DNA of 64,000 nt from positions 8,953 to 72,952 of the forward strand of contig DASVRN010000110.1 in assembly GCA_036388595.1 (NCBI GenBank), in the 5' to 3' direction. Both the position numbers and the translations under genes were made by a program. Below the pieces are notes generated by a model. That model worked only from the letters and a program-made list of their open reading frames with translations, was not told the DNA's origin and ran no database searches. Source of the DNA: Chloroflexia bacterium (GTDB lineage Bacteria > Chloroflexota > Chloroflexia > QHBQ01 > JADMIH01). Below, in pieces: positions 44,912 to 47,900 of this stretch (positions are counted from its first letter, which is position 1; every line of letters starts with the position of its first letter).

Positions 44912-47900
44912 CTATTTCCAAACTTCGGAGAGGAAGTCTCTGGTCTGCTCGGCCATGAAGCGCGACGTATGATCGTGCCAGGCACTTTGAGCATCAGAGG
45001 GTGGGAATTCGACCCTGTCATGATTTTCATGGTCCGGCATCGCAAGTCCATGCCCCTTCGGATATCTGGGGTCGCTTACCTCCGGGATTCCGTGTATGGG
45101 AGGATGGCTTACCCAGTCGTTCGCAGTATCCACGGTCAGGACATTAACTCCTAGCGTAGAGGCGGCCGATCCCAATTCGTTTATTTTACGCCCAAAACCT
45201 CCGAGAACTACCCAACCTGGCTGGTACGTAACGAGTGGAGCATCGATTAGGACTGCGCTCTTCACTCTGCTATCTGCTCCCTTACCATCTGCTGCCTCGA
45301 GAAGATACTTAGCGACGGCAGCCCCGCCTTCGCTATGTCCTAGCAGATGTATATCGACACCGGGGCCGTGATCAGTAATACCCTCGATGGTCTTCCTGAT
45401 ACCTTCCGCCCCTCCGGCTAGGGTCTTGGCACCTACGTACTTCACATGGGTTTTCGCCCAGACTTCGAAGGGCATAGTAATTGTTTGACCACCGAAGGTA
45501 CCGATCACTCCCCAGCCTTCCTCATCATACATCTTCTTAAGTTGCTCCCCATATTCGCCCCAGTCTGAAGGATCATCCCTGTCGCAAGCAGTGCTAGAGG
45601 TACATCCTTGTACAAAGATGTAGTAGTCTTCAGGACCAAACCCAAGCTGATCAATGAACCTTAACGGGTTACCATGAGCGTACAGGTACCTGTTATAGTC
45701 CATGGCGTTAGATGGATTCTGGGTAGTGGGGTCAGCGGACACAAAGTGAGCAAGCTCTGGATCGTAGTAGCGGGCACCAAAGTACATCAGCTTGGTACCC
45801 GCATCCAGCCTCTGACCTGTGAAGCCCACGCTGGTGCGGGAAGTGCCTGTCTGCCAGGCCACCTCTCCATACGGCTTGTAGTACGCCCTGTACAGCACAG
45901 CGGGTGTGGGGGAGGTATCCACCAGCAGGGTGGTAGAGCCCAGGTGGTCGCCCACCATGCGCTGCTGGCCGTTATCAGCAGGGTAGTTCACCCTCCTCAT
46001 GCCTACCATCTTTGAGCCGAGGAAGTAGAAGTTGGTGTATGGGTGGGCAGTGGCAGACTGGTCAGGGCCAGTCAACTGCTCCTCATACAGGTTACCCACG
46101 TAGAGGGTGCGTTTCACGTCCACGGAGGCAGCCGCCCAGTTTACCGCTGCATCGAACAACCTGCGGCCCTCAGCAGTCTGGTAAATCGCAGCGTCATTGT
46201 ACAGGTAGAAGCCTACCCGCTTGGCCGGGGCTGTAAGGCCATACATCTGAGCCCCGGTTGTATACGCAAAGATCGGAGAGAGGGTAGCGTTGTCGGTAAG
46301 AGTAGCTACCTTGAGGGCATTGGCGTTGGGTATTCCCCACACCACGCCACCTGTCGTGTTCGTACTGACCGTCACATCACCTGTAAACCCATCGGCCACC
46401 GGATGTGCCGGGTCTGCTATCCTCACCGCCAGGTGACCGTAAGCCCCCATCTGGGTCGTTGGGGTGTCGGTCATGCCCATGTCATCCATGAGGTAAGGCT
46501 CGCAATTGATTACGGGCACCGTCACGTTCCGAAGCTTTGTGCCAATCGCCGTTGACATGGAGGTGGCCGAGACGAACACTACACTCTTGCCAGTGGCATC
46601 CGCGCTCGTGAGCAGGTCATCATCTACGACGGTAACGTTATAATCAATGTCTCGCAGCCGGTTACGAATGATAGTGTCGCTGGCATTCATGCTGTTGGGC
46701 GCGTCTACCACAAACAGGGCGCTCTTGGTTACCGGAGCCGCTGCCCAGTTCACCGCTGCATCAAACAACCTCCAGCCATTCTCATTGTGGTAGGCTCCCA
46801 TATCATTGTACATGTAGAAACCTACCCGCTTGGCCGGGGCTGTCAGGCCGTACATCTGGACACCTGCTGCATAAGCAAAGATGGGTGACAGGGTCGAGTT
46901 GTCCCAGAGTGTAGCCGCTTTGATGGCATTAGCGTTGGGTATGCCCCATACCACGCCGCCCACCGTGTTATTGGTCACGGTTACGTCGCCGGTCAACCCT
47001 CCCGCAAGCGGGTGAGATGGGTCTGCTATCCTTACTCCCCAGTGGGCATACGCGCCCATTTGAGTACTGGGAGTGTCGGTCATGCCCATGTCGTCCAGCA
47101 TGTATGGCTCGCAGACGATCACGGGTACCGCCACGTTACGCAGCTTGGTGTTGATAGAACCGGATAGCGAGGTGGCCGAGATGAACACAAGGGTCTTGCC
47201 TGTGGCATCGGAGCTGGCAACCAGGTCGTCATCGGCCACCGTCACCGTATAGCCGAGGCCCTGTAAGTGGCTGCGAATGGCAGTGTCAGCCGTGTTCAAG
47301 CTGGCGGGATTATCTACCACAAACAGCGCGGTCTTTGAGGCTGGTATAGCTAGGGTGGAGGTGATAATGCTCTGGACCAGGCGCTTGCCCTCGCCGTCGT
47401 ACACGAATTCGGTGGTGGTGTTGCCCTCGACTATCCTGGTGACGCGGTTTTGGGGGTCGTAGGTGCGGTTCTGAGTCGAGCCGCCGCGCACGGCGGACGT
47501 TTGGTTGCCCACGTCGTCATACGCGTAGGTGTTGCCCTTGAAGGCGGTGATCCGGTCTACGTGGGTGGCATCGTAGGTGTAATTGTACTGGACTCCCCCG
47601 ATAGTGCGGGAAGTCATCCGCGGCCATTGGTCGAAGCTCACCTGTTCCGAGGTGAACACGGCCGTATTGTTGGTGGTAAAGGAGCGCATGCGCTCAAGCC
47701 CGTCATATGTAAAGTTGTTGGTGAAGGTCGGGTTGGCCGAGGTGCCCCCCGAAACCTGGCTGATCTGGCTGATGTTGCCGTCTAGCTTGTAAGCGACGTT
47801 CAGCTCGAGGTGCGTGGTCGCCCCGGCGGCGGTGGTAACCTTGGTCTTGGTGAGCCAGCCTCGCTTGGTGCTGGCATCATCGTAGGTATAAGCAGTGGTA

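Follow-up and report, generated by a model that had tools for sequence, protein, structure and literature searches.

How a giant RHS protein of the Chloroflexota is armed at its C terminus, and how its producer escapes the weapon, is the question raised by a locus on contig DASVRN010000110.1 of a Chloroflexia bacterium (assembly GCA_036388595.1). The window, i.e., the whole stretch of 64,000 nucleotides that was analyzed, carries a gene for an SpvB/RHS polymorphic toxin of 2765 amino acids (aa), followed by a gene for a 131-aa membrane protein. The locus combines an RHS architecture and core, a conserved serine α/β-hydrolase domain as the C-terminal tip, a co-diverging membrane partner and a recombining cassette. 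Our reading, which we hold to be probable, is that the tip functions as an esterase exported for use against other bacteria, probably a (phospho)lipase, which attacks the target membrane at its outer face and is blocked by a membrane-resident immunity protein. To our knowledge, interbacterial antagonism is essentially unstudied in the Chloroflexota.

The carrier is identified by several domain matches, all above their cut-offs in the case of the scored models: an SpvB/TcB-like region (PF03534) at aa 347–570 with 38 bits (cut-off 22), the Rhs-associated core (TIGR03696, Rhs_assc_core) at aa 2444–2523 with 76 bits (cut-off 32.5), and RHS/YD repeats recognized by TIGR01643 (22 bits, cut-off 15.8) and by PF05593 in four stretches. 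Close to the N terminus, a segment of basic and hydrophobic residues, MRHRRKRNYWLLSLISVVSLVLTPF...AIA, resembles a Sec signal or an anchor. The core terminates in ...NRYLYAHGNPLRFIDQLG, and the variable 242-aa tip begins directly 3' of the release motif, the junction being ...NPLRFIDQLG/FGPEDYY. The same arrangement recurs in the family, with a motif NP[LIV]R[FY]xDxxG directly ahead of the first strand, DYYVFVxGC, in 27 of 57 other library hits; about ten tip relatives are stand-alone proteins with an N-terminal transmembrane helix, and the remainder are fragments. The stand-alone members (L006:279-1846 and L005; P0011-P0013, P0018-P0020 and P0022) have a GTSAGG elbow in addition to the N-terminal helix, and are not fused to RHS.

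A sequence-only reading of the locus had placed a GxSxG motif, VLIDAP and HDHTS in the last ~240 aa and proposed an α/β-hydrolase tip, and both the motifs and the fold are borne out. The tip includes GVDIHLLGHSEGGAAVAKYLL with GHSEG, GVDIHLLGHSEGG, VLIDAP and WHDHTS. Word-indexed homolog searches yielded merely 2–4 relatives of it, and an exhaustive profile search, covering 1.84 billion representatives, was necessary to collect 59 proteins at E ≤ 1e-3, of which 31 reach E ≤ 1e-10; all of these relatives are labeled 'hypothetical'. An AlphaFold2 model built on a 22-sequence alignment has a mean predicted local distance difference test (pLDDT) score of 90.3 and a predicted TM-score (pTM) of 0.90, with alternating strands and helices. 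Foldseek comparison of this model with the PDB gave 42 matches at E ≤ 1e-3, and all 50 of the matches listed are α/β hydrolases, the majority of them carboxyl-ester hydrolases. The top match is the Legionella phospholipase PlaB (6zti; E = 9e-6, TM-score 0.42–0.44), and further matches comprise DUF915 cell-surface hydrolases, cutinases/PETases, monoglyceride lipases, CALB, acetylxylan esterase, cinnamoyl esterases and the mycobacteriophage protein LysB. The α/β-hydrolase fold and the serine-hydrolase active site are thus well supported. No search gave any indication of a nuclease or deaminase tip, in agreement with the sequence-only reading, which had set both aside.

Conservation was counted in an alignment of 39 tip-family members. 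Gly101, Ser103, His222, Trp61 and Tyr112 are invariant (39/39), His65 is kept in 38/39, Gly12 in 37/39 and Asp133 in 36/39. Since Gly101, Ser103 and His222 are invariant across these homologs and Asp133 is nearly so, GHSEG is not a chance match. In the model, Ser103 of G101-H-S103-E-G105 lies exactly between strand 97–102 and helix 104–117, which is the position of a nucleophile elbow, and Gly12 lies on the first strand at the HG-like oxyanion position. Ser103 and His222 can be regarded as secure predictions for two of the catalytic residues, read from the alignment. Asp and His candidates had been named beforehand from VLIDAP and HDHTS, and the assignment stands in part: the first histidine of HDHTS is the invariant His222, but the second is not conserved, and the aspartate of VLIDAP, Asp133, follows β6, although it is well conserved and invariant in a second alignment (A2). 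An acid at the canonical position after β7 would be Asp171 or Asp175, the latter kept in most members and replaced by Ser in one subgroup; the surrounding VDTANDWV resembles NDG[IL]V, the motif that holds the Asp in family I lipases.

With respect to chemistry, the tip is most likely a carboxyl-esterase or lipase, as judged from the fold and the profile matches. The earlier suggestion of a lipase/esterase or Tle-like effector is supported as far as the predicted class is concerned, most of the Foldseek matches listed being carboxyl-ester hydrolases and the best profile match a lipase, but no Tle-related Pfam family is recovered. The family profile matches the Staphylococcus hyicus (phospho)lipase (2hih) at E = 0.004, in an alignment that runs from the FVHGF/FVQGC strand via GHSMGG to the β6 motif, whereas an hhalign comparison of the profile with Bacillus subtilis LipA gave a probability of 1%, which is not significant, and placed neither the acid nor the His. 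The tip is not a member of the PlaB family or of the bacterial family I lipases; the S. hyicus match is confined to β3 to β6. The same matches bear on a rival proposal, in which the tip would be an S33/S9-like serine peptidase or amidase and its target a protein of the membrane or envelope. Peptidases do occur in the α/β-hydrolase superfamily, and the tip weakly matches Hydrolase_4, 'serine aminopeptidase S33'; however, there is no peptidase among the Foldseek matches listed, and a likeness to family I lipases is seen both in the profile match and in the HG-like oxyanion strand, so that we regard this proposal as most improbable.

The gene directly downstream of the toxin, in which the sequence-only reading had seen a multi-transmembrane immunity candidate, fits that role. 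The 131-aa protein has about three transmembrane segments and no Pfam or NCBIfam match; its family consists of six clusters, every one labeled hypothetical, and the cluster identical to the window protein carries the name 'MAG TPA: hypothetical protein VF826_07145 [Chloroflexia bacterium]'. Homologs occupy the position immediately 3' of a related tip once each in L001 and L004 and in two cassettes of L003, and they also adjoin orphan modules in L009 and L010. Tip and membrane protein co-diverge across four other cassettes: relative to the window pair, identities of tip and immunity protein are 93% and 95% in the L003 main cassette, 58% and 49% in L001, 45% and 33% in the L003 orphan cassette, and 35% and 37% in L004. 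Conserved synteny and co-divergence support the view that the protein behaves as the cognate immunity protein, as far as this can be predicted from sequence. A stretch of L010 (L010:97-916) contains two immunity homologs in tandem, with the toxin gene absent from the sequenced stretch, and may represent an array of immunity genes alone.

Loop 1 (WRR...) and the C terminus of the window-type partner are positively charged, which by the positive-inside rule suggests an N-out protein with about three transmembrane segments and a loop of ~40 aa on the outside. In this predicted loop Cys89 is invariant and Cys104 is present in 8/9 sequences; the family also shares an invariant His within the first transmembrane segment and a strongly conserved loop motif, LWSSDARG. 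The tip family for its part conserves a Cys13/Cys19 pair, and the two cysteine pairs together fit action in an oxidizing, extracytoplasmic compartment. A multi-transmembrane protein is encoded 3' of the family tip at every locus examined (10 tip loci), and these partners belong to at least three unrelated types, namely the GGHL...IWRR type of the window, a QW[LM]VL-repeat type (L006, L007 and L008) and another in L002. In L006 it is a stand-alone tip that is followed by a multi-transmembrane protein with QWLVL motifs, the type that is also found 3' of the RHS-borne tips of L007 and L008.

These partners also bear on the question of the substrate. A serine esterase toxin could be directed against a cell-wall ester or acyl group (e.g., O-acetyl or other acyl esters, in the manner of cutinases or LysB) or against a lipid-linked envelope precursor, instead of a membrane glycerolipid, with the immunity protein residing in the membrane just to adjoin the site of attack. 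The cutinases/PETases, acetylxylan esterase, cinnamoyl esterases, DUF915 proteins and LysB among the structural neighbors are in line with such a target, as is the model itself, in which residues 140–146 form the sole flexible region and no lid helix is evident. On the other hand, the top structural and profile matches are (phospho)lipases, and three unrelated polytopic membrane partners fit an enzyme of the bilayer surface better than an enzyme of the wall. We therefore consider a wall or precursor ester unlikely as the target, and a membrane-lipid ester remains our preferred substrate.

The tip and the next gene form a recurring, co-diverging cassette that is exchanged through repeats of the core sequence. 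A 78-bp segment of the core, GDHLGSTTLLVDTSPTPAVLYRAYYK, recurs beyond the immunity gene as an orphan core remnant, GDHLGSTTLLVDTSSTPAVLYRAYYK. Because this repeat flanks the cassette, core end, tip and immunity gene make up a unit of ~1.5 kb bracketed by direct repeats. The syntenic contig L003, from the related metagenome-assembled genome Chloroflexota bacterium PEA bin11, shares 95% DNA identity with the window across the gene end; there, the main tip and its immunity gene are followed by an orphan core fragment with a second tip (P0002), the latter's own immunity homolog and a rhodanese gene. The core end of this orphan is 84% identical. The orphan module occupies 2.1 kb (L003:3319-5413), as opposed to 255 bp of unrelated sequence (44021-44275) in the window after the remnant, which corresponds to the first 78 bp of the module and is all that the window retains of it. 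A toxin cassette is thus polymorphic in nature by deletion or insertion, and the two sister genomes directly show its gain or loss at the core repeat. Tandem immunity genes and orphan modules are likewise found in L009 and L010, and the GC content of the cassette is about 50–54%, compared with 61–68% in the flanking housekeeping genes. Core repeat, orphan modules and atypical GC are classic signatures of polymorphic toxin loci. For scanning loci, alignment A1 was used, A2 being too diverse.

This organization bears on a non-antagonistic explanation, in which the tip would be a surface-displayed esterase for nutrient scavenging or polymer degradation, and its small membrane partner would serve export or some accessory function. 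PETase/cutinase-like structural neighbors, the existence of stand-alone family members with an N-terminal transmembrane helix and the lack of delivery machinery in the window would all accord with that role. Against it stand hallmarks of polymorphic toxin systems, namely the position of the tip behind the release motif of the Rhs core, the orphan modules of core, tip and immunity gene, the small gene in tandem copies, the co-divergence of tip and neighbor, and the core repeat that flanks a cassette of atypical GC. A scavenging esterase is thus very unlikely in our estimate.

Between the toxin stop and the immunity start lies a hairpin with a perfect 18-bp stem and a 4-nt loop, and the 101-nt spacer that contains it folds at −43.9 kcal/mol (z = −5.4). 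Hairpins also lie at L003:2714-2753, L003:4509-4555 and L004:334-374; two other cassette types have one of differing sequence at the same position, and L001 has none. As there is no U-tract 3' of it, the hairpin does not qualify as a classical intrinsic terminator. It may serve mRNA stability or processing, or may uncouple expression of the two genes.

In the mechanism that we propose for the interbacterial esterase, the RHS protein would be exported by Sec, with the tip encapsulated and later released by autoproteolysis of the core at DQLG/F. The free tip, as a carboxyl-ester hydrolase and most likely a (phospho)lipase, would then hydrolyze ester bonds of membrane lipids in the outer leaflet of a neighbor's cytoplasmic membrane. 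Chloroflexota are generally regarded as monoderm, which would let a released esterase reach the neighbor's membrane from outside. The producer, we propose, would be protected by its polytopic immunity protein, whose loop on the extracytoplasmic side, probably closed by a disulfide bond, would capture the enzyme and bind it at the membrane surface.

Several observations weigh against this reading. The best Pfam score of the window tip, for Abhydrolase_1, is 22.7 bits and falls short of the gathering score of 25.8; Hydrolase_4, Lip_C and Abhydrolase_6 score lower still, Lipase_3 is matched at E = 0.25 only, and no Pfam gathering score is reached by this tip. TM-scores to solved structures are modest (0.40–0.44), and therefore the substrate is not readable from the structural neighbors. 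DSSP assigns His222 to helix 216–227 of the model and not to the usual loop. The catalytic acid is ambiguous on the sequence evidence, with Asp133 the best conserved candidate (after β6) and Asp171/Asp175 the canonical ones (after β7). Finally, the 64-kb window contains no secretion or delivery apparatus of the TcA, type VI (T6SS) or type VII (T7SS) kind.

The remaining Pfam results concern the family as a whole. Abhydrolase_6 is matched by 10 of 22 members, with a best E-value of 5e-6; weak matches to Abhydrolase_1 and Hydrolase_4 also occur, and single members weakly match DUF900, DUF915, LCAT, PGAP1 and steryl-acetyl hydrolase. Sequence searches of NCBIfam and the PDB with the tip returned nucleophile-elbow matches alone, at E ~ 0.3 in the PDB for the single tip. 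The families against which the sequence-only reading had proposed to check the tip fared differently from the superfamily: a sub-threshold Abhydrolase_1 match was recovered, but membership of the Tle, PGAP1 and DUF2974 families was rejected, there being no significant match in Pfam scans of the tip and 22 relatives and, for PGAP1, one weak match in one relative. DUF2235 and DUF3274 were absent from the same scans, as was DUF2974.

A more far-reaching interpretation is that the tip founds an undescribed clade of α/β-hydrolase toxins that is neutralized only from within the bilayer, for which three unrelated polytopic families have been recruited. Part of the toxin might enter the membrane and be recognized there, or the 'immunity' protein might be a catalyst that works on the lipid or the product, not a stoichiometric inhibitor. 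We regard this interpretation as distinctly unlikely, and retain capture at the membrane surface.

Table 1 Features of the toxin–immunity locus, in window coordinates and in the order of the toxin reading frame
Feature	Position	Strand	Basis
SpvB/RHS polymorphic toxin gene, 2765 aa	44912..53209	-	Open reading frame; PF03534, RHS_repeat, TIGR01643 and TIGR03696 matches
Putative Sec signal (peptide or anchor), aa 43-78	52976..53083	-	Read from the translation
Two tandem ~203-aa domains in RHS shell, protein aa 1958-2362	46124..47338	-	Mutual identity 71%
Core segment, upstream copy of 78-bp direct repeat	45875..45952	-	73/78 nt identical to 44274..44351
Rhs-associated core domain, NPLRFIDQLG release motif at its end	45641..45880	-	TIGR03696
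C-terminal toxin tip, α/β-hydrolase domain, 242 aa	44915..45640	-	Profile, conservation, AlphaFold2, Foldseek
Ser103 codon (protein aa 2626), predicted nucleophile in GHSEG	45332..45334	-	39/39; elbow position in model
Asp133 codon (IDAP, after β6), candidate catalytic acid	45242..45244	-	36/39
Asp171-Thr-Ala-Asn-Asp175 codons, after β7, canonical acid position	45116..45130	-	Strand 166-170 in model
His222 codon, predicted catalytic histidine	44975..44977	-	39/39
Hairpin between toxin stop and immunity start	44841..44880	.	Folding
Ribosome-binding site AGGAGG, 7 nt before ATG of 131-aa gene	44818..44823
Cognate immunity candidate, 131-aa membrane protein (~3 transmembrane segments), ~40-aa Cys-containing loop	44415..44810	-	Synteny, co-divergence, hydrophobicity
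Orphan RHS core remnant, 78 bp	44274..44351	-	Site of second tip-immunity module in sister genome

Two further features of the carrier gene lie outside the cassette. The tandem ~203-aa domains are placed immediately ahead of the final core strands of the RHS shell; a Pfam scan of the inserted domain gave no match, and AlphaFold2 run on the single sequence reached a pLDDT of only 33.8. Relatives have other inserts at the same site, namely three PA14-like repeats in P0004 and another domain in P0016, and this position may be a hot-spot at which modules exposed on the surface, possibly for receptor binding, are inserted. The ~1.3 kb 5' of the RHS start (53210-54594) is devoid of a convincing open reading frame and has a GC content of 0.48, compared with about 0.6 nearby; it may represent a promoter, a regulatory region or an insertion scar.

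The remainder of the window is housekeeping in character, with GyrB, sugar-nucleotide enzymes, ABC transporters, an OGG-like glycosylase and thymidine kinase. None of its open reading frames is large enough for TcA, and the large ones include no T6SS genes. No match came from an Rfam scan of the window or from a tblastn search of plasmids. The 654-aa product of 13719-15683 (minus strand), which has a Peptidase_C39_2 domain, is apparently unrelated to the RHS locus.

The locus adds an unannotated esterase/lipase-type toxin family, together with a matching family of polytopic membrane immunity proteins, to the RHS polymorphic-toxin repertoire. The carrier resembles B. subtilis WapA and the TcB-TcC (BC) cocoons, in which an RHS/YD shell with an Rhs core encloses a variable C-terminal toxin and lets it go, and the SpvB-like N-terminal region recalls TcB in particular. 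WapA export is signal-peptide dependent, as is predicted for the carrier. In contrast with the window tip, WapA tips are tRNases that are paired with soluble WapI immunity proteins, and the TcA component needed by Tc toxins is absent from the window. At the level of the tip, the closest likeness is to PlaB and the S. hyicus lipase, which have in common with it the HG-like strand, a GHSxGG elbow and a β6 motif ending in P; however, identity is only 12–17% and the TM-score about 0.42, the C-terminal domain of PlaB is missing, and the tip has no lid or cap comparable with that of staphylococcal lipases.

The tip constitutes a previously unannotated α/β-hydrolase family of an already known kind of bacterial weapon. 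Zhang et al. 2012 (PMC3482391) described Tox-ABhydrolase-1, -2 and -3 as lipase-like α/β-hydrolase tips on RHS and other polymorphic toxins and proposed that they attack membranes; Tox-ABhydrolase-1 corresponds to DUF2235 and Tox-ABhydrolase-3 is class-3-lipase-like, and the families were reported with the soluble immunity domains SUKH, Imm66 and Imm69. The window tip departs from these descriptions in having no DUF2235 match, in its marginal Lipase_3 score and in its polytopic membrane partners. Membrane-embedded immunity is the most distinctive trait of the window system.

Like the T6SS effectors Tle1-Tle4, which are antibacterial phospholipases with an adjoining cognate immunity gene, the tip is a predicted GxSxG serine hydrolase, the phospholipase activity being presumed in its case. 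The Tli immunity proteins of those effectors are generally either periplasmic or lipoproteins and are not known to be polytopic. Like the Tle effectors, the Staphylococcus aureus T7SS lipases TslA and TslM are analogs proven by experiment; they act on the membrane from outside and are neutralized by membrane-anchored immunity proteins, TslM by TilM (DUF1433, a single-pass membrane protein) and TslA by the lipoprotein TilA (PMC13560087). Both systems combine a lipase-type toxin of a monoderm, presumptively so for the tip, with membrane-attached immunity and arrays of immunity paralogs. They differ in the carrier, a Sec-type RHS protein in one case and an LXG-like T7SS substrate in the other, in the lipase family, and in the immunity protein, where about three transmembrane segments and a 40-aa loop take the place of a globular ectodomain. 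The constant pairing of tip and membrane protein supports the rule drawn from the staphylococcal T7SS lipases, that the defense against membrane-directed toxins of monoderms is placed at the surface of the membrane.

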